DNA of 34,300 nucleotides from a virus (IMGVR_UViG_2778261246_000006); one strand, 5' to 3'. Counted from the first letter of the stretch, positions 1 to 31,680 are shown. The notes: generated from the letters alone by a model not told the origin. Made by a program: numbers and translations.

Positions 1-1032
1 TCAAAAACTTGCTATTGATGTTGGTAGTGTTGCCAGCGGATTAAACCGTAATGCAGTTTCCAGGTGATCCGGTGCCAGATGTGCGTAACGCATAGTCATT
101 TTTATATCGTGATGCCCGAGAATTTTTTGTAAGGCCAGGATATTTCCACCCGACATCATGAAGTGCGCCGCAAACGTATGGCGCAGAACGTGTGTCAGTT
201 GACCGCGAGGGAGCACGATAGACGTTTTTTCCATCACGGATAAAAATTGAAAATAGCAGTCTGTAAAGAAATTGAACCCATCAAGCGCCATGATCTCTTC
301 GTAAAGCTCTTTACTGATAGGGATGCTTCTGTTTTTCTTCCCCTTCGTTCTTACAAAGGTAATTCGGTATTTGGTCACCTGTGAGCGGGTAAGATTTACG
401 GCTTCACGCCAACGTGCGCCTGTGCTTAAGCATATCTTAACTACCAGTGCCAGAATTGGGTCCTGACGTTTGCAATCAGCCAGCAATTCAACAATCTGCT
501 CATGGGTAAGCCATGCCATCTCTTTTTCTGCGATGGTGAATTTTCGCATGTTCTCCAGTGGGTTCGGATACGACCATTCGCCCAGGCGGGATAGTTCGCT
601 AAAAACACTACTTAGATAGCTTTGCTCCAGGTTAATGGTGACCGGGCTTGCTCCTTTCTTCCATTTCTCGCTGAAGTAGATCTCACCTGTCAGGCGTTTA
701 TCTCGATAGTGGGCAAACATTTTAGATGTGAGATCAGTTGCAAGGGGATTGCCCAGAGCGTCAACCATCAGCAGCAATTTGTCATAGACATGCTGCCCAG
801 CAGTCAGTGATTTACCATGTAGTTTGAACCATAGCTCAACCACGTCTTTCAGTGTTCGACGATCCACTGATTCACCCAGCCAGGGCTTTGCTTCGGTTTC
901 TTCCATCGTGTGACGCTCAAAAGCCAGTGCTTCGCCTTTGGTGGCGAATTGTTTACGCACACGACGCCCACTACGTCCGGCGGGGTAACATTCGCAAAGC
1001 CATTTTCCTGTGGTGAGTTTTCGTACAGCCAT
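1..1032 (-). CDS. int: Tyrosine integrase (P2 Int family)
   Basis: Translation from MAVRKLTTGKWLCECYPAGRSGRRVRKQF shows recombinase boxes (TGARWRE; HVLRHTFAAHF; MRYAHL catalytic Tyr). GGAGGG RBS 8 nt upstream of the ATG at 1032; the ORF-track start at 1188 is probably an upstream in-frame extension. Confidence 0.9.
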   Translation of the reverse strand: MAVRKLTTGKWLCECYPAGRSGRRVRKQFATKGEALAFERHTMEETEAKPWLGESVDRRTLKDVVELWFKLHGKSLTAGQHVYDKLLLMVDALGNPLATDLTSKMFAHYRDKRLTGEIYFSEKWKKGASPVTINLEQSYLSSVFSELSRLGEWSYPNPLENMRKFTIAEKEMAWLTHEQIVELLADCKRQDPILALVVKICLSTGARWREAVNLTRSQVTKYRITFVRTKGKKNRSIPISKELYEEIMALDGFNFFTDCYFQFLSVMEKTSIVLPRGQLTHVLRHTFAAHFMMSGGNILALQKILGHHDIKMTMRYAHLAPDHLETALRFNPLATLPTSIASF

Positions 1033-1220
1033 AAAAAATGCCCTCCAATAGAGAGCATTTTTACTGTATGTATAACCAGTGTCAATGTATGAAATCCTGC
1101 GACCATACATCTCACTGAAGCCATAATGAAGTAGGCTATTCTTTTTGCTATGTGAGCATGTAACTTTTGCGGTTAACCTGTGGCTCATTTTTATTTTAGG
1201 CGCAGATATAAAAGCAAAAG

Positions 1221-1412
1221 TTATCGTGAGTTTTTAGTACAGATTTTTTTGGATTTACTAATAGTTCCATCATTGCAAACGAATTTGCCATCAGAGGTAC
1301 AGTGAGAAACACCTCCCTTTTTCCCTGAGCAGGGATAATTTCTAGCATAGGTAGCTAGTGGGTTTAATAACAAAGAACATGACAAAACCACAAAAAATAC
1401 CTTACCAAGCAT
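1221..1412 (-). CDS. Small secreted cysteine-rich protein (63 aa), candidate moron
   Basis: N-terminal signal-peptide-like segment [23 protein letters not shown], then about 40 aa with 4 Cys; GGAGG RBS 6 nt upstream overlapping the CI stop; AT-rich. Confidence 0.45.
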
Positions 1413-1427
1413 AATTTCCTCCCGGTA

Positions 1428-2003
1428 CTATTTAACATACTTGACTGTTAAACTTATAATTTTACCAATTATTTCAATGTCTTCTATCTTGCATTCGAAG
1501 GCTCTGTTTCCACCCTCGACGAAGATTCTTCCACCGGGTAAACGAGTAATGTCACGGATCGTTATTTCGCCATCAATACTTATTACCCATTTACCATCAC
1601 GTATATCATCAAATTCCTTATCACAAATAAATTCAGAATTATTATCTGTGATTACAAAAAGATTCTTGAATGCCGACGGTAGAAATTCTCTATCGAAAAT
1701 ATAAAAACCGTCTTCACACAAGGCCCCATCAGATAATACATATTTAGCAACTTCCATAGTATTTGTATTACCTGAAGTTTGCTTTGAACCATGCCCGGTT
1801 GTGAGCCAATTAAGCGAGGTGCCTGTTTCAAGGGCGCACTGGATTACCCATTCTGCTGGGAATGAGTCACGCATGTAGCGTGTGGCGAGTGTACTTTTAG
1901 AGATTCCTAAATGATCGCACAACGCCTGTCGAGTCTTGAATCCATAAGCTTCTACCATGCGCTCTATAGCGCCTCGTCCGCCTTTCTCCAAATTCATGGT
2001 CAC
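1428..2003 (-). CDS. cI: CI-type immunity repressor (phage 186 CI-like, 191 aa)
   Basis: N-terminal HTH-like region (ALCDHLGISKSTLATRYMRD); size and position (divergent from apl/cII, upstream of int) match the 186-type lysogeny operon. Confidence 0.8.
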   Translation of the reverse strand: MTMNLEKGGRGAIERMVEAYGFKTRQALCDHLGISKSTLATRYMRDSFPAEWVIQCALETGTSLNWLTTGHGSKQTSGNTNTMEVAKYVLSDGALCEDGFYIFDREFLPSAFKNLFVITDNNSEFICDKEFDDIRDGKWVISIDGEITIRDITRLPGGRIFVEGGNRAFECKIEDIEIIGKIISLTVKYVK

Positions 2004-2893: not shown

Positions 2894-3094
2894 ATGCTGA
2901 CGAAAGAACCATCATTTGCATCGCTGCTGGTAAAACAAAGCCCGGCAATGCACTACGGTCACGGCTGGATCATGGGTGAGGATGGTAAACGCTGGCATCC
3001 GTGCCGTTCACAAGATGAATTGCTGGCAGAACTATCTACGAAAAAACGGGGGAACAAATGGCTATTGAAGGCACTGCGGCGACTGTTCCATTAA
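2894..3094 (+). CDS. Small early protein (67 aa), possibly Fil-like
   Basis: ORF with GAGGTG RBS before the ATG at 2894 (MLTKEPSFASLL...); function assignment is a guess from position in a 186-like early operon. Confidence 0.35.
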   Translation: MLTKEPSFASLLVKQSPAMHYGHGWIMGEDGKRWHPCRSQDELLAELSTKKRGNKWLLKALRRLFH

Positions 3095-3399
3095 GCCCCG
3101 GTGAACGCCTGAATGGACTTAATCACATTGCGGAATTAAGGGCGAAAGTTTTTGGCCTGAATATTGAGTCAGAGCTTGAGCGGTTTATTAAAGATATGCG
3201 TGATCCATGGGATATCAATAATGAACAAAATAAAAGGGCACTGGCTGCCATATTCTTTATGGCAAAAATTCCAGCTGAACGTCATAGCATCAGCATTAAT
3301 GAGCTGACCACTGACGAAAAGCGGGAGTTGATTAAAGCAATGAATCATTTTCGTGCAGTGGTGAGCTTATTTCCCAGACGGCTAACCATGCCGAATTAA
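3058..3399 (+). CDS. Hypothetical early protein (113 aa)
   Basis: ORF with GGGGGA RBS; overlaps the previous ORF by 37 nt; no motif recognised. Confidence 0.45.
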   Translation: MAIEGTAATVPLSPGERLNGLNHIAELRAKVFGLNIESELERFIKDMRDPWDINNEQNKRALAAIFFMAKIPAERHSISINELTTDEKRELIKAMNHFRAVVSLFPRRLTMPN

Positions 3400-3466
3400 C
3401 CAACTAATGAAATTAATGGCGTAAACCCGCCGGGCATCCCTTTATCTAAATTCAGGAGAATTGATT

Positions 3467-3700
3467 ATGCGTAATATTGAAACCCTCACGACTAAAACTG
3501 GACCGGATGACGCAGGGCTTAATATTTTACTGACAGAGGCTCGTCTGGAAGAACGCCGGGCAAGGGCTGAAGCAATGGCAGCTCGCCTTGATAGCCTGGC
3601 GTGTCATATCACATCCCGCCAGCTAAACCACGTCGAAGCAGCAGAACTGCTGCGTGTGACCGCTGAAGCAATCCAGAGCGAAGCGCAGGAGATCCACTAA
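3467..3700 (+). CDS. Hypothetical early protein (77 aa), P2 orf80/DUF2732-like
   Basis: AGGAG RBS 8 nt upstream of the ATG at 3467; predicted coiled/helical; stop overlaps next start. Confidence 0.5.
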   Translation: MRNIETLTTKTGPDDAGLNILLTEARLEERRARAEAMAARLDSLACHITSRQLNHVEAAELLRVTAEAIQSEAQEIH

Positions 3701-3927
3701 TGGCTGATGCAATGGATCTCGTACAGCAGCGCGTTGAAGAAGAACGCCAGCGCCATATCCGTGCTGCCCGTGCCAAAACACCGGGCGTGTCTCGCGTGCT
3801 TTGTATTGAATGTGAAGCGCCAATTCCGCCAGCACGCCGCCGTGCCATTCCTGGAGTGCAGCTTTGCATTACCTGTCAGGAAATCGCAGAGCTGAAAGGC
3901 AAACATTACAACGGAGGTGTTGTATGA
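3700..3927 (+). CDS. TraR/DksA-family C4 zinc-finger protein (75 aa)
   Basis: CIECEAPIPPARRRAIPGVQLCITCQ = CxxC-N17-CxxC; stop overlaps dam start (ATGA). Confidence 0.7.
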   Translation: MADAMDLVQQRVEEERQRHIRAARAKTPGVSRVLCIECEAPIPPARRRAIPGVQLCITCQEIAELKGKHYNGGVV

Positions 3928-4781
3928 GCACCATCCTGAAATGGGCGGGAAATAAAACCGCCATTATGTCCGAACTGAAAAAACATCTTCCTGCTGGCCC
4001 GCGACTGGTTGAACCTTTCGCGGGGTCCTGTGCTGTGATGATGGAGACGGATTATCCCAGCTATCTGGTTGCGGATATTAATCCTGATTTAATCAACCTC
4101 TATAAAAAGGTTGCCGCTGATTGTGAATCGTTTATATCTCGCGCCAGAGTTTTATTTGAGATCGCAAACAGGGAGGTGGCTTATTACAACATAAGGCAGG
4201 AGTTTAATTACTCAACTGAAATTACTGATTTCATGAAAGCGGTATATTTCCTGTATCTCAATCGTCACGGTTACCGTGGTTTATGTCGCTATAACAAGAG
4301 CGGGCATTTCAACATTCCCTACGGTAATTATAAAAATCCGTATTTCCCTGAAAAAGAAATTCGCGCATTTGCAGAAAAGGCCCAGCGAGCAACGTTTATC
4401 TGCGCCAGCTTTGATGAAACGCTGGCGATGTTGAAGGCGGGGGATGTGGTGTATTGCGATCCGCCGTATGACGGTACGTTTTCCGGCTATCACACTGACG
4501 GCTTCACTGAAGATGACCAGTATCACCTGGCATCTGTTCTTGAACATCGGTCATCAGAAGGACATCCGGTCATTGTTTCTAACAGTGACACATCCCTGAT
4601 CCGTTCGCTGTATCGCAATTTTACTCACCACTACATCAAGGCAAAACGCAGCATCGGTGTGGCAGCTGGTGATAGTAAATCTGCAACAGAAATCATTGCT
4701 GTTTCCGGGGCGCGCTGCTGGGTGGGATTTGATCCTTCGCGTGGCGTAGATAGTTCTGCTGTGTACGAGGTGCGTGTATGA
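3924..4781 (+). CDS. dam: DNA adenine methyltransferase (Dam-like, GATC-type N6-adenine MTase)
   Basis: [12 protein letters not shown]-terminus, [12 protein letters not shown]-binding motif, catalytic DPPY (YCDPPYDG); GGAGG RBS 6 nt upstream of the ATG at 3924. Confidence 0.9.
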
Positions 4782-7192
4782 GTCATGACGATATGAGCAA
4801 CTCTAGCGGCTTTAACGAGGCCGCTGCATCATTTTCATGGAACGGCCCGAAAAAGGCCATTAACCCTTATCTGGACCCGGCGGAATTTGCGCCGGAGTCT
4901 GCACTTTCAAACCTGATCACTCTGTATGCTGCCGATAACGAGCAGGAACAACTGCGCCGCGAGGCACTGAGTGAGCAGGTCTGGGAGCGTTATTTCTTTA
5001 ATGAATCCCGTGATCCTGTCCAGCGCGAAATGGAGCAGGATAAGCTCATTAGCCGCGCAAAGCTTGCGCATGAGCAGCAGCTTTTTAACCCGGACATGGT
5101 CATTTTGGCAGATGTCAGCGCCCAGCCTACCCACATCAGCAAGCCGCTGATGCAACGTATCGAATACTTCAGCAGCCTGGGCAGGCCAAAGGCTTATTCC
5201 CGCTATTTGCGTGAGACGATTAAGCCATGTCTGGAGCGACTGGATTGTGTACGCGACAGTCAGCTATCCGCTTCTTTCCGTTTTATGGCAAGCCATCAAG
5301 GGCTTGAGGGCCTGCTGATCCTGCCTGAAATGAGTCAGGATCAGGTAAAACGCCTGTCCACCCTGGTAGCTGCGCATATGAGCATGTGCCTTGATGCCGC
5401 TTGTGGCGATTTATATGCCACCGATGACGTTAAGCCAGAAGAAATCCGTAAGACATGGGAAAAGGTGGCAGCGGAAACCCTGCGACTGGATGTTATCCCG
5501 CCTGCGTTTGAGCAACTCCGCCGGAAAAGAAACCGCCGCAAACCCGTGCCCTATGAACTCATACCGGGTTCGCTGGCACGTATGCTTTGCGCCGACTGGT
5601 GGTATCGAAAATTGTGGAAGATGCGTTGCGAATGGCGGGAAGAGCAGTTGCGTGCTGTCTGCCTAGTCAGCAAAAAAGCATCTCCCTATGTCAGCTATGA
5701 AGCCGTGACGCATAAACGTGAGCAGCGCCGTAAGTCGCTGGAGTTTTTCCGTTCTCATGAACTGGTGAACGAAGACGGCGACACGCTGGATATGGAAGAT
5801 GTGGTAAACGCCAGCAGCAGCAACCCGGCACATCGCCGCAATGAGATGATGGCCTGTGTTAAAGGTCTGGAGCTTATCGCAGAAATGCGTGGTGACTGCG
5901 CCGTTTTCTACACTATCACCTGTCCGTCACGTTTCCATTCCACGCTCAACAACGGCAGACCCAACCCGACCTGGACAAATGCGACGGTAAGACAAAGCAG
6001 CGATTATCTGGTCGGCATGTTTGCTGCATTTCGTAAGGCTATGCACAAAGCCGGGTTGCGCTGGTATGGCGTGCGGGTGGCTGAGCCGCACCATGACGGT
6101 ACTGTGCACTGGCATCTCATGTGTTTCATGCGCAAAAAAGACCGCCGCGCCATTACTGCATTGTTGCGTAAGTTTGCCATCCGTGAAGACCGCGAGGAAC
6201 TGGGTAATAACACTGGTCCACGCTTTAAATCTGAGCTGATAAACCCACGCAAAGGAACACCGACAAGCTACATCGCGAAATACATCAGTAAGAACATTGA
6301 CGGGCGTGGTCTGGCTGGCGAGATCAGCAAGGAAACGGGTAAATCCCTGCGTGATAATGCTGAATACGTTAATGCCTGGGCGTCTCTGCATCGTGTTCAG
6401 CAATTCCGCTTCTTTGGCATTCCGGGGCGTCAGGCTTACCGTGAACTGCGATTGCTGGCTGGTCAGGCGGCAAGGCAACAGGGGGACAAAAAAGCAGGTG
6501 CGCCGGTACTGGATAACCCGCGCCTTGATGCCATCCTGGCTGCTGCTGATGCTGGTTGTTTTGCCACCTACATCATGAAGCAGGGCGGCGTACTGGTTCC
6601 CCGCAAATATCACCTTATCAGAACAGCTTATGAAATTAACGAAGAGCCGACTGCTTATGGCGATCACGGTATTCGTATTTATGGCATCTGGTCACCCATT
6701 GTACAGGGCAAGATTTGCACTCATGCAGTGAAGTGGAAAATGGTTCGTAAGGCCGTTGACGTTCAGGAGGCGGCAGCCGACCAGGGCGCTTGCGCCCCTT
6801 GGACTCGTGGCAATAACTGTCCCCTTGCTGAAAATTTGTACCAACAAGGGAAAGACAAATCAGCTGATGGAGATACCAGAACGGATATCACCCGCATGGA
6901 TGACAAGGAGTTGCACGATTACCTGCACAGTATGAGCAAAAAAGAGCGCCGGGAACTGGCAGCAAGGTTACGCTTGGTGAAACCGAAACGGCGTAAAGAC
7001 TACAAACAGCGAATTACAGATCATCAGCGACAGCAGCTCGTGTATGAACTGAAGTCCAGGGGATTTGATGGCAGCGAGAAAGAGGTCGATTTACTGCTTC
7101 GCGGCGGCAGTATTCCGTCAGGAGCAGGCCTGCGTATCTTCTATCGGAACCAGCGTTTGCAGGAAGATGATAAGTGGCGAAACCTGTATTAA
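4778..7192 (+). CDS. A: Replication initiation endonuclease A (rolling-circle HUH nickase, P2 gpA / 186 A)
   Basis: 804 aa; HUH-like VHWHLMCF and twin-tyrosine YIAKYISK motifs; position after the early operon. Confidence 0.9.
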
Positions 7193-7284
7193 TTACGCAG
7201 GTTAACAATTCGTGCTCTTAATAATACCAGGCATATCAGGCTGATGAGCGTAAAAAAACGTTTTACATCAGTAAGATTATTATA

Positions 7285-7304
7285 TACTGTAAATATAAAC
7301 AGTG
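7285..7304. promoter_or_regulatory. LexA (SOS) box TACTGTAAATATAAACAGTG, overlapping a putative promoter
   Basis: Perfect CTGT-N8-ACAG core at 7287-7302 in an AT-rich stretch 40-60 bp upstream of the 7345 ORF; possible second half-site-like element GTATACAGTAT at 7310-7320. Confidence 0.7.
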
Positions 7305-7344
7305 GTTATGTATACAGTATTGCTTTGGTGTCATAGGAGGAAAG

Positions 7345-7533
7345 ATGCAGGACTATTTTTTGGAGTCTTTGAAGCTCCAGCGCATTGATTTTTTTCTTAA
7401 GCTTGTAGCGGCTAGTGAGTGTAGTGATGAAGAGAAGGGGCTGGCTTTGCAGTGGGTTTCTGAACTGACTGATGAACTCATGGCGAAAATCAGAACCCAC
7501 GAATACAATCGCTCAATGGATGTCATCAGCTGA
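7345..7533 (+). CDS. Small protein (62 aa) downstream of the LexA box; possible Tum-like antirepressor N-terminal part
   Basis: Strong RBS (AGGAGG) before the ATG at 7345; immediately followed in another frame by the DinI-like ORF. Confidence 0.45.
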   Translation: MQDYFLESLKLQRIDFFLKLVAASECSDEEKGLALQWVSELTDELMAKIRTHEYNRSMDVIS

Positions 7534-7543
7534 GGTGACTTTT

Positions 7544-7777
7544 ATGCGCATTGAAATAATGATCGATAAAGAGCAGAAGATTAGCCAGTCTACCCTGGAC
7601 GCCCTTGAATCCGAGCTTTACCGCAATCTGCGCCCCCTGTATCCCAAAACGGTAATTCGTATCCGTAAAGGTAGCTCTAACGGTGTGGAACTGACCGGAC
7701 TGCAACTGGACGAAGAAAGAAAACAAGTGATGAAAATTATGCAGAAGGTGTGGGAAGACGACAGCTGGCTGCATTAA
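7544..7777 (+). CDS. DinI-family protein (77 aa)
   Basis: MRIEIMIDK...ELYRNLRPLYP...KIMQKVWEDDSWL matches the DinI fold pattern recalled from E. coli DinI (MRIEVTIAK...ILQETWE..DDW); GAGGTG RBS. Confidence 0.75.
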   Translation: MRIEIMIDKEQKISQSTLDALESELYRNLRPLYPKTVIRIRKGSSNGVELTGLQLDEERKQVMKIMQKVWEDDSWLH

Positions 7778-7899
7778 GAAACGTTGCTGGCGTCTGAACT
7801 TGCTTCTGGCGTCAGCAAGGTTGAACAACGAGCTGTGCGAGGCGTTAGTTGATATAGTATCAATATATAAAAGGTTTCTCGAAGTTTTAAGGTAAGGTT

Positions 7900-8619
7900 A
7901 TGACAACTATTAACAAGCATGGGTTATCTAGAACAATTCCTGAACCTGTAAAACTGGAGGTAAGGCAGCGCTGTGGCTTCGGTTGCGTTGTTTGTGCTTC
8001 TCCCATTGTTGAGTATGAGCATGTAATTCCCACATACGCTGATGCAAAGGAGCACTCTCCAAATGCAATAGCACTACTTTGTCCTACGTGCCATGCGAAA
8101 GTAACGAAACGTCTTTACTCTAAAGAGAAAATCATTAAAGCAATGGAATCTCCTGCAGCCTTACAAAAAGGGAATGTGGCCGATATATTGGACTTTTCTG
8201 ATAGGCATCCAATAATAATATTTGGTGGTGCGACGTTTGAATCCTGTACTGTACCAATAATGTTTCAAAATGAGCCATTGTTAACCATTGAAAAAGAAAA
8301 TAATGCTTTTCTTATTTCGGGTAAATTTTACGATAGTCAAGGTATTGTTAATCTTGAATTAATTAAGAATGAGTGGGTATGTAGTGCAAGGCATTGGGAT
8401 GTTCAGGTTGTCGGTCCTAGAATAACTATTATAGAAAAAAGGAAAGGTCCTCGTTTAATTATTAAAGTTGATGCGCCTGAAAGATTGATTGTGGAAAGAT
8501 TAGATATGTTGGTTAAGGGGACTCGGATTGTAGGAGACGAACACAAGCTAAGAGTCGGTCCACATCAATTTCACAACTGTGGAGTTTCAAATTGCAATAT
8601 TGGTTTCTGCTTTGGCTAA
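7900..8619 (+). CDS. HNH-motif nuclease-domain protein with unknown C-terminal domain (239 aa); cargo gene
   Basis: N-terminal CGFGCVVC...EYEHVIP...NAIALLCPTCH (CxxC/H-N-H/CxxCH arrangement); markedly AT-rich relative to flanking phage genes; own RBS. Confidence 0.6.
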   Translation: MTTINKHGLSRTIPEPVKLEVRQRCGFGCVVCASPIVEYEHVIPTYADAKEHSPNAIALLCPTCHAKVTKRLYSKEKIIKAMESPAALQKGNVADILDFSDRHPIIIFGGATFESCTVPIMFQNEPLLTIEKENNAFLISGKFYDSQGIVNLELIKNEWVCSARHWDVQVVGPRITIIEKRKGPRLIIKVDAPERLIVERLDMLVKGTRIVGDEHKLRVGPHQFHNCGVSNCNIGFCFG

Positions 8620-8732
8620 CTGGAGGTTGGAAAAAGACCATTTCCTATAAGCTGAGTATTTCGTGCATTTTTGCCAACGCATGTCTATGCCGCATGAAAT
8701 CGCATGATCGTTTGAGGATCGTTTTTGCTGAT

Positions 8733-8759
8733 GCCCGCCAGAGCTGGCGGGCTTTTGCT
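8733..8759 (+). terminator. Candidate rho-independent terminator after the HNH gene
   Basis: GC-rich inverted repeat GCCCGCC...GGCGGGC followed by TTTTGCTT. Confidence 0.4.
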
Positions 8760-8881
8760 TATGTCATGCAGGTGCATGAAAACCACTACACAAAGCGGGC
8801 AGGCGTGGCGGGGATACGAGCGCGCGCAAACATGTTTACTTGCAATTAATGTAGATATATTCTGAAATTGATAACTTACAC

Positions 8882-9091
8882 ATGAAAGGAGACGTGAGAG
8901 TGGCAAAATATACACCGGGCCAGAAAGTAAAACATGCAACAGGACATGGTCCAATCATGGTAATTGATCACTACCAATCGGCTACAATGGCAGTTTGTAC
9001 GTGGTTTATTGGTGCTAAGAACCAGCGCGGAGTTTTTCACGAAGATACTCTAGTTTTATTTGTTCCAAAAGCTGAGAGTGATGATGAATGA
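8882..9091 (+). CDS. Small protein (69 aa), YodC/DUF2158-like
   Basis: Pattern GQKVKHATGHGPIMVID...CTWFIGAKNQRGVFHEDTLVLF resembles the GDxVxLKSGGPxMTV...CxWF...F motif of DUF2158 as recalled; start could instead be an internal GTG. Confidence 0.45.
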   Translation: MKGDVRVAKYTPGQKVKHATGHGPIMVIDHYQSATMAVCTWFIGAKNQRGVFHEDTLVLFVPKAESDDE

Positions 9092-9350
9092 TTCTCTGAT
9101 AAAAATAGTTGACTGGATGGTTAATACCACTCGTTCTAATGGTGTGTTGTATCAGTCCGAGGTTGTTGAATTTCTAATCAATGACTTTGGGGACGAGTTC
9201 ATCAAAACTAATGAGAATGGTAATTACGCTATAAGCAGTACTGTGCTAGCAAATTTTAGAAAGGCTAGCAAAGACGATATAGTTTGGGATCGTGAACAGT
9301 TAGCTTGGCGTTTACGCAATGAAAGCGATTTACCCGGACGGATGCAGTAG
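9084..9350 (+). CDS. Hypothetical small protein (88 aa), translationally coupled to the upstream gene
   Basis: ATG at 9084 overlaps the upstream stop (GATGATGAATGA); AT-rich; no motif recognised. Confidence 0.45.
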   Translation: MNDSLIKIVDWMVNTTRSNGVLYQSEVVEFLINDFGDEFIKTNENGNYAISSTVLANFRKASKDDIVWDREQLAWRLRNESDLPGRMQ

Positions 9351-9367
9351 AGATAATACAGATAATA

Positions 9368-9407
9368 GTGAACAAGCTGATAATTTCAACTTGTTCACTT
9401 CTTTTTT
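9368..9407. terminator. Bidirectional rho-independent terminator between the cargo island and portal gene Q
   Basis: Perfect 9-bp inverted repeat GTGAACAAG / CTTGTTCAC followed by TTCTTTTTTAT; lies between convergent genes. Confidence 0.6.
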
Positions 9408-10449
9408 ATGACTGATTATTTTCTAAGCCATAATATTCAAATTTGACTACCTCTTCATCTAACCATTCATTAATTTCGGCAATGCGTTTTTGTAAAGGCA
9501 TCAGTTCATTCCGAACAAATACCCGGCTGGCTTTCTCCACATCCCCAAACCCCCCTACATTATTAGGCATAATCCCCATCATCTGCGGCGGCACTCGGTG
9601 TGCTGCCATCATGTCGTCCCGGCTCACGTTCTTGATATTTAGAAACTCATCCTTCGCCGCGACTTCTGACAACGGGATGATCTGAAGCCCGTCCTTTTTG
9701 CCGTTAGGCGAGTACATAAACAGATTGCGGAAGTTACCTGGTCCTTTGGCGCTTTTCATCGCATTGCGGAGGTTGTTCACATCCTCCTGGTTTTGCGCGG
9801 CATCGGTCATGTACATAATGAAGCCTGCATGACTGCCGTTAATGTAATACTTTCGACGGAACAGCGTGGCGGACTCGTTGAGCAGGGCAGACGGAATGGC
9901 AGAAAGATAGCCGGGCAGGCCGTAGATCTCCTGATTAATATCCGGTTCCATCAGATGAAAAATGCTGCCTTTCGTGAACTGATACGGCTGGGTTGTCATA
10001 CCGTATTGCATAAACCAGTAGGTATCCAGGTCTAACCCGCGTCGGGTGTATTTTGCCAGAGCAGGCTCAAGGGCTATAACTTCACCGAAGCGGTTCGTGC
10101 GTTTCTCCAGGTAGGCGTTACCAAATACCAGATAGTCCTGCACAAAACGTGAAAAAGCCTGCTGGCTGAGCAGCGGGTGAGGGATGTAGGTACTGGTCAG
10201 AATGTTGCATTTCACCGCAATTGGTGAGCTGTGATGCACGGCGGCGCGGAAGGTTCGTGCCAGTCCGTCAAAGCTGACGGGCGGCTCATACCAGCGATCC
10301 ATCTGTACGCATTCCACATAGTCCAGCAGTTCACGGCGGTCCAGAACAGGAACGGGATCGCCAAAGCTGAATGCTTCGGCTGAAGTCTGGCTTTTATGCT
10401 TGAGCTGATTCGTCGCCGCAGCGCGGTTTTTCTTACTCTTTCCCATCAA
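9406..10449 (-). CDS. Q: Portal protein (P2 gpQ)
   Basis: 347 aa, first gene of the leftward late operon, adjacent to terminase; P2 Q-like size and order. Confidence 0.9.
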   Translation of the reverse strand: MMGKSKKNRAAATNQLKHKSQTSAEAFSFGDPVPVLDRRELLDYVECVQMDRWYEPPVSFDGLARTFRAAVHHSSPIAVKCNILTSTYIPHPLLSQQAFSRFVQDYLVFGNAYLEKRTNRFGEVIALEPALAKYTRRGLDLDTYWFMQYGMTTQPYQFTKGSIFHLMEPDINQEIYGLPGYLSAIPSALLNESATLFRRKYYINGSHAGFIMYMTDAAQNQEDVNNLRNAMKSAKGPGNFRNLFMYSPNGKKDGLQIIPLSEVAAKDEFLNIKNVSRDDMMAAHRVPPQMMGIMPNNVGGFGDVEKASRVFVRNELMPLQKRIAEINEWLDEEVVKFEYYGLENNQS

Positions 10450-31445: not shown

Positions 31446-31525
31446 CGCTGCCGCCATTTTGTCGCCATCGTTAAAAAACAGTGCTTCTAACATCATGATT
31501 TTAAACGGTATAAATTTCAGACAAC

Positions 31526-31568
31526 AAAAAACCCATCAACCTTGAACCGAAATGGCGGGGTTGATGGG
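31526..31568 (-). terminator. Stem-loop with a T-run on the minus strand; candidate terminator downstream of ybjL, in the expected attR region
   Basis: Perfect 10-bp stem CCCATCAACC / GGTTGATGGG with 17-nt loop, preceded on the plus strand by AAAAAA. Confidence 0.45.
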
Positions 31569-31680
31569 CTCCACAAAATGGGGACATCAAAGAAAAGCAG
31601 TGGCACTAATTAAGACTGATGCCCTGCGGAAAAGTTCTGCGGTTGTGCAAAAAAATTTCATTTTCAGGGCAACTTCAGTT

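Follow-up and report, generated by a model that had tools for sequence, protein, structure and literature searches.

The question raised by the region immediately downstream of the replication gene in this stretch of viral DNA (the window, 34.3 kb in its entirety) is whether it holds an intact SOS-induction module, and which of its parts would release the prophage from repression. The first-pass annotation had read a LexA core, a 62-aa open reading frame (ORF1) and a 77-aa DinI-like open reading frame (ORF2) as a module resembling tum of phage 186, a reading which is supported here by the identity of ORF2, by the profile and PHROG homology of ORF1 and by the 186-type CI/Apl/CII switch of the prophage; it had offered a genuine two-gene arrangement and a frameshifted tum as alternatives. 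We conclude that the region is very probably the split tumA-tumB SOS operon of a Fels-2/186-type prophage, an arrangement that is already described (PSP3 tumA/tumB and Fels-2) and very common.

The prophage and its tum module

The window is a 186-like (Fels-2/186-type, Peduoviridae) prophage, the gene map of which comprises the following features.

4-1032, minus strand: integrase (int)
1428-2003, minus strand: 186-type CI immunity repressor (Pfam Phage_CI_repr 2.8e-33 and Phage_CI_C 2.7e-27)
2123-2344: Apl-like gene
2371-2886: CII (Pfam Phage_CP76 match)
4778-7192: replication gene A (gpA)
7262-7818: tum module
7900-9350: variable cargo region
9406-10449, minus strand: portal gene

ORF mapping places the tum module between gpA and the portal gene, which is the slot occupied by tum in 186, and the CI/Apl/CII switch is of the 186 type; phage 186 shares with the window the genomic slot, the type of switch and a LexA-repressed promoter, the latter being predicted in the window. 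The CI protein, which is 33% identical to 186 CI, is without a credible S24 autocleavage domain (its Peptidase_S24 score lies under the Pfam cut-off) and is the presumed target of TumA. By ORF map and Pfam, the module is accordingly carried by a temperate phage of the 186 type whose CI is non-cleavable, and it occupies the interval between gene A and the portal gene.

Several features of the surrounding DNA were observed in passing. Between cI and int, which in 186 follow one another directly, the window has an inserted 63-aa ORF (1221-1412, minus strand), the product of which has a signal-peptide-like N-terminus and contains several cysteines; it gave no match in Pfam or PADLOC and resembles a moron. 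A full-length RybB sRNA gene is present towards the far end of the window (31523-31601, minus strand; Rfam RF00110, 105 bits), and because of this gene that end is probably host chromosome or the prophage attachment-site region. No RNA family was detected by Rfam in the tum region. Between tumB and the portal gene (7900-9350) there is a variable cargo hotspot, which in the window encodes a 239-aa HNH-motif protein (phrog_6544; Pfam HNH 2.4e-5), a DUF2158-like 69-aa ORF and a DUF6953 96-aa ORF, and which elsewhere holds orf97 (186), another 243-aa gene (Fels-2) or a TIR-domain gene (phage 500465-1). Both the 239-aa HNH gene and STM2726 of Fels-2 were considered as counterparts of 186 orf97 and rejected as unrelated, and a PADLOC search of the cargo downstream of tumB was without significant match. 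The cargo genes may be co-transcribed from the SOS promoter.

The elements of the module itself are listed below.

7262-7267, plus strand: -35-like hexamer TTTACA of the tum promoter (TTTAC invariant or nearly so across 20 upstream regions)
7283-7290, plus strand: predicted -10 region TATACTGT, invariant in 20 relatives and overlapping SOS box 1
7285-7304, no strand: SOS (LexA) box 1 TACTGTAAATATAAACAGTG, 17 of 20 consensus positions
7300-7319, no strand: SOS box 2 CAGTGGTTATGTATACAGTA, weaker, overlapping box 1 by 5 bp
7345-7533, plus strand: tumA-like gene for a 62-aa predicted antirepressor (Shine-Dalgarno GGAGG, 7335-7339)
7544-7777, plus strand: tumB-like gene for a 77-aa DinI-family protein (Shine-Dalgarno GAGGTGA, 7532-7538)
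7784-7818, plus strand: GC-rich hairpin after tumB, lacking a U-tract, with a strong stem in the RNA fold

ORF1 had been placed directly 3' of the LexA box, where it is indeed found at 7345-7533 with a TGA stop codon at 7531-7533, and its product matches STM2728 of Fels-2 at 61/62 aa (98% identity). Direct BLASTP of ORF1 against 186 Tum was without a match. A profile of the ORF1 family, built from 28 diverse relatives, aligned residues 5-44 with residues 5-44 of 186 Tum (hhalign 94.5%, E 7.6e-8), matched a 61-aa 'tum protein' of a Yersinia phage with 96.6% probability and matched PSP3 TumA weakly (probability 8.6%, E 0.0039). Among the PHROGs, ORF1 belongs to phrog_698, which is also matched by the N-terminus of 186 Tum (2.7e-5, residues 7-44), and it matches phrog_1993, the PSP3 TumA family, at 0.0022. 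On the strength of the profile comparison and the PHROG cross-matches, members of the ORF1 family are homologues of the N-terminal part of Tum, a relationship that pairwise BLASTP alone fails to recover, and ORF1 is the counterpart of the N-terminal half of Tum. The predicted structure of ORF1 is a two-helix hairpin (pLDDT 88.5), and the TumA family was without a match among solved structures.

The assignment of ORF2 was more direct. Its start is the ATG at 7544, the upstream in-frame ATGs at 7472 and 7520 not being the start, and its Shine-Dalgarno sequence overlaps the tumA stop codon. The product matches the Pfam DinI family (PF06183) at E 6.6e-23 and 81.3 bits against a cut-off of 24.2, is 41% identical to residues 71-145 of 186 Tum (E 3e-24), 78% identical to PSP3 TumB and 100% identical (77/77 aa) to STM2726.1 of Fels-2. 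Residues 1-77 of E. coli DinI (PDB 1GHH) align end to end with ORF2 (E 2.7e-6), and the C-terminal acidic W-E-x-x-D-x-W region is common to both, so that the family membership of ORF2 is borne out by the full-length domain as well as by a solved structure. ORF2 differs from host DinI in being phage-borne and closer to the clade of Tum C-terminal parts and TumB (41-100% identity). It is the counterpart, by sequence, of the DinI-like C-terminal half of Tum, and this DinI-like segment follows the antirepressor segment as it does in Tum. Alignment to 186 Tum, which the first-pass annotation had proposed as a check, finds both ORFs related to it, ORF1 by profile and ORF2 by its 41% identity.

Two hairpins were noted around tumB. 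The one at 7784-7818 is possibly a weak terminator or an RNA-stability element, and its sequence is retained directly 3' of tumA in loci without tumB. The other, a 6-bp stem (GTCATC...GGTGAC) followed by TTTT at 7522-7539, spans the tumA stop codon and the tumB Shine-Dalgarno sequence, which it would bury, and was flagged as terminator-like; as a regulatory element it was dropped, as the junction sequence is unconserved in relatives and the stem is probably incidental.

Predicted promoter and overlapping SOS boxes

The operator described at 7285-7304, with its CTGT-N8-ACAG LexA core overlapping a -10-like element, is present as stated in the first-pass annotation. Box 1, TACTGTAAATATAAACAGTG, has 3 differences from the 20-bp LexA consensus TACTGTATATATATACAGTA and is the sole such consensus match in the 34.3-kb window, a match of this kind being found in 0/100 dinucleotide shuffles. 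The bare core occurred at least once in 38/100 shuffles and is weak evidence when taken alone. A comparable box is situated 20-97 nt 5' of ORF1 in 32/33 related loci.

A consensus promoter scanner called no promoter at the tum module, and the tum promoter was assigned by analogy with the annotated p95 promoter of 186 and from the pattern of conservation across genera. When 20 upstream regions from different genera are aligned, the spacer between the -35-like hexamer and the -10 region is constant in length and variable in sequence. The TACTGT at 7285-7290 lies 17 bp from the TTTACA hexamer, and the 186 record gives p95 as TTCACA-18-TACTGT, in which TACTGT is both the -10 element and the left half of the LexA site. 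The element at 7283-7290 is on these grounds the predicted -10 region, and a LexA operator is predicted to overlap the promoter directly 5' of tumA.

Adjoining this operator is a second box, CAGTGGTTATGTATACAGTA, a feature that had been missed earlier. It consists of a good half-site (TACTGT, on the minus strand) and one degenerate half, and scores approximately 7.3 on a heterology index for which every sampled 20-mer of the window exceeds 12; the matrix, rebuilt from E. coli sites, does not exactly reproduce published values, and the index serves for ranking only. Box 2 recurs in Fels-2 and in 21/33 loci, again offset by +15, and is absent from 186, PSP3, ESSI-2, ev040, YenM and L030-L037.

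The two boxes of the window, both better than background and overlapping by about 5 bp in a 15-bp register, constitute a predicted colicin-style pair of SOS boxes. Over 35 bases, 30 are identical between the window (TACTGTAAATATAAACAGTGGTTATGTATACAGTA) and a colicin plasmid (AACTGTATATAAAACCAGTGGTTATGTGTACAGTA), the latter sequence being the operator 5' of the pore-forming colicin gene on a Col plasmid. Colicin and pesticin operators contain two 20-bp boxes at a 15-bp offset, as does the window, and the pst operator of pPCP1 (TACTGTACATAAAAACAGTGGTTTTATGTACAGTA) has the same layout. Such colicin operators are reported to be bound by two LexA dimers and to be very tightly repressed (PMC2994835). 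In the bacteriocin promoters the boxes are located 3' of the -10 element, whereas box 1 of the window overlaps it, and a resemblance over 35 bp may reflect either shared ancestry or convergence.

Another good LexA-type box is found elsewhere in the window, at 1062-1081 on the minus strand (CACTGGTTATACATACAGTA), approximately 30 nt 5' of the probable int start at 1032 (MAVRKL...). In the int promoter (approximately 1040-1087, minus strand) this box takes up the 17-bp spacer that separates a perfect TTGACA from AAAAAT. In the 3 further loci that have an int of this type (L008, L017 and L040), the TTGAC(C)ACTG...ACAGT block is kept, the sequence further 5' of it being completely different, and among the related loci the int-proximal box accompanies only the int type of the window. 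This arrangement suggests that the int promoter may be SOS-controlled.

TumA as predicted antirepressor

Based on the literature on 186, PSP3 and Fels-2, the module would be expected to operate as follows. In the lysogen, host LexA would occupy the overlapping pair of SOS boxes, thereby covering the -10 element and the promoter start and keeping the operon off; upon DNA damage, activated RecA would bring about self-cleavage of LexA and the operon would be transcribed. The 62-aa helical-hairpin TumA would then bind the non-self-cleaving 186-type CI and stop it from binding its operators, so that the lytic promoter would fire and the prophage be induced. The separately translated 77-aa TumB would be an accessory, probably acting on RecA filaments and tuning the SOS signal; the 186 record states of the DinI part of Tum that it 'modulates SOS induction'. 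The same logic is seen in the dinI-gfoA/gftA operons of Gifsy-1, -2 and -3, which are LexA-repressed and combine a small antirepressor with a DinI homologue (PMC3121763), albeit with dinI first, the reverse of the order in the window; Gifsy prophages did not appear among the matches obtained.

It is conceivable, but in our estimation improbable, that the region is only an SOS-inducible accessory operon of the dinI type, in which ORF1 has another role and the prophage is induced by another route. The family of ORF1, phrog_698, is listed by PHROGs as being of unknown function, and the only documentation of the upstream gene as antirepressor is a personal communication, which is quoted in the report that attributes the antirepressor activity of PSP3 to that gene (PMC3121763). 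The same report nevertheless does name the upstream gene of PSP3 as the antirepressor, and the homology of ORF1 is to the first 45 residues of 186 Tum, the part which lies outside the DinI-like half. An antirepressor would moreover be needed since the 186-type CI is without a credible S24 autocleavage domain, and in the related loci no LexA box other than the int-proximal one is present in the 10 kb 5' of ORF1.

Gene content in the relatives also argues against an accessory operon, as ORF1 is kept where dinI has been lost. The comparison set consisted of 33 loci from approximately 15 Enterobacterales genera, and tumA is intact in 32 of these; tumB is absent from 13 (L013, L017, L023, L027, L031-L038 and L040) and decayed, by premature stops or frameshifts, in 4 (L012, L022, L026 and L039). 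In L017, L027 and L040 tumB has been cleanly deleted, the post-tumB hairpin being joined straight to tumA, and the ESSI-2, ev040 and Yersinia YenM phages carry a TumA-like gene alone. The retention of tumA combined with the frequent loss of tumB fits an essential antirepressor, TumA, and a dispensable modulator, TumB. One record, L002 (Escherichia phage 500465-1, NC_049342), has IS100-type genes (istB and transposase fragments at 913-2145 and 3045-3677) within or adjoining its gpA region, together with local frame disturbances in tumA and tumB, and is for these reasons probably degraded or error-containing; its deposited annotation extends both ORFs upstream to longer starts.

The accessory-operon reading draws some support from the observation that the divergence of TumA does not follow that of CI. 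Co-variation of the two sequences was not found (Spearman -0.06 and -0.10). Where two loci share a TumA that is at least 96% identical, measured over its first 55 residues, their CI proteins are 33-59% identical in the N-terminal, DNA-binding domain and 26-59% identical in the C-terminal domain. An antirepressor and repressor matched with high specificity would not be expected to behave in this way, and the argument for specificity from co-variation of TumA with its cognate CI was abandoned, the correlation being absent. An individual case is L029 (Pantoea stewartii ATCC 8199; CI at approximately 3204-3725, tumA at 10001), in which a Fels-2-type TumA, 84% identical to that of the window, is accompanied by a CI of the 186 sequence type, the N-terminal domain of which is 29% identical to that of the window CI; this pairing represents either an antirepressor of broad specificity or a recombinant in which the two are mismatched. 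The absence of co-variation suggests that TumA recognises a conserved surface of CI or that mismatched recombinants are frequent, and is to be treated as a lead, not a result.

Relative frames of tumA and tumB

The first-pass annotation had pointed out that the 77-aa DinI-like ORF is in a different frame from ORF1, and this is the case, the two start codons being 199 nt apart. The alternative that it had raised on this account, namely a 186-like tum inactivated by a frameshift or sequencing error in a prophage that is not SOS-inducible, has a certain arithmetic appeal, as the two ORFs total 139 aa against the 146 aa of 186 Tum and each matches one half of it. It has, however, been refuted by the comparative data and we assign it next to no probability. 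A stop at the same position, with a separate Shine-Dalgarno sequence and ATG for ORF2, is seen again in Fels-2, more than 50 phage records, 1125 E. coli genomes and the 33 loci. ORF1 is exactly 62 aa long in 29/33 loci and ends in TGA, TAA or TAG, and intact ORF2 copies start 198, 199, 200 or 201 nt past the ORF1 start, each with its own Shine-Dalgarno sequence. Because of this variable offset, ORF2 occurs in all three frames (0, +1 or +2) relative to ORF1. Purifying selection on both ORFs is strong, with dN/dS values of 0.04-0.13 (ORF1) and 0.08-0.14 (ORF2).

The search for fused proteins in this TumA family identified none: a DinI domain was found in 0/120 of the closest ORF1 protein clusters, and among 66 ORF1 representatives at 50% identity, only two odd, long proteins, P0159 and P0179, had room for a DinI domain 3' of the match. 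The remaining alternative, a fused TumA-TumB made as a single 186-like polypeptide by programmed frameshifting or stop-codon readthrough, for which one may cite the viability of the fused form in 186 and the in-frame genes of PSP3 with only TAG and one codon between them, is just as improbable, given that the relative frame is unconserved in the clade with ORF1-type proteins (offsets 198-201), that the 9-12 intergenic nt contain a Shine-Dalgarno sequence and not a slippery site, and that 13/33 loci have an intact tumA and no tumB. Both the frameshifted tum and the fusion by programmed frameshifting can in effect be excluded, and the module is a split tumA/tumB operon of two genuine genes, not a broken tum.

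Comparison with individual phages leads to the same placement. Phage 186 produces one fused 146-aa polypeptide, the N-terminal 45 aa of which are homologous to ORF1 and the C-terminal DinI-like domain of which is homologous to ORF2, and internal starts also yield the DinI part alone. It further differs from the window in having a single SOS box and in its downstream orf97, which is unrelated to the downstream genes of the window. The window does not hold a tum in this strict sense, that is, one ORF of approximately 146 aa; the TGA at 7531-7533, followed by a separate Shine-Dalgarno sequence and the ATG at 7544 in another frame, assigns the module to the split form of PSP3 and Fels-2. Splitting of tum by a stop codon in both of these phages was reported by Lemire et al. 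(PMC3121763).

The Salmonella phage PSP3 likewise has two genes that follow a LexA box, namely a small UV-induction gene and a 77-aa DinI homologue; its record annotates tumA as 'similar to 5' end 186 tum; UV induction of prophage' and tumB as 'similar to dinI and 3' end of 186 tum'. PSP3 TumA belongs to another sequence subfamily (phrog_1993), the PSP3 genes are in frame, whereas those of the window are in different frames, and the 186-like promoter of PSP3 contains a single SOS box as compared to the two of the window.

The closest counterpart is the module of the Salmonella phage Fels-2 (STM2728/STM2726.1), the DNA of which is 97.1% identical to that of the window, both SOS boxes included, and which holds the same position after gpA. 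Fels-2 differs from the window only in its downstream cargo genes and its CI immunity type, the module itself being without meaningful difference. In the literature, the lethality of a lexA null mutation is attributed to Fels-2, and as a phage that is lethal upon loss of LexA possesses a 97% identical module, the split form works; this lethal derepression likewise speaks against an inactivated tum. Between the alternatives initially put forward, it is thus the two-gene arrangement that stands, the frameshifted tum having failed on the variable frames, the purifying selection, the identity with Fels-2 and the PSP3 annotation. There is no ground for the concern about impaired inducibility through a frameshift, since the evidence settles the two-gene arrangement.

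The SOS-induction module of this prophage is consequently intact and standard, and nothing in the region points to non-inducibility. The module is present in 1125/5426 complete E. coli genomes, about one in five, and in many other Enterobacterales. Its genes are labelled 'hypothetical protein' and 'DinI-like family protein' by PGAP in the E. coli genomes, and tumA is currently 'hypothetical' (PGAP) or of 'unknown function' (PHROGs); the practical value of the present analysis lies in a better annotation, with tumA as antirepressor and tumB as DinI-like.

A more tentative proposal, and one that we consider rather doubtful as a whole, is that the Fels-2-type tum operon departs from the 186 paradigm by combining a double-box lock, a broad-spectrum TumA and a LexA-controlled int. 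If true, the double SOS box would make for tighter, later and more switch-like induction than the single-box p95 of 186, the near-invariant TumA, whose neighbouring CI repressors include one of the 186 type, would be a broad-spectrum antirepressor, able to recognise a surface conserved among CI proteins and to cross-induce 186-like prophages of other immunity types, and LexA control of the integrase would be direct in this int lineage. The double SOS box and the absence of TumA-CI co-variation offer modest leads on the timing of induction and on crosstalk among 186/P2-like prophages.
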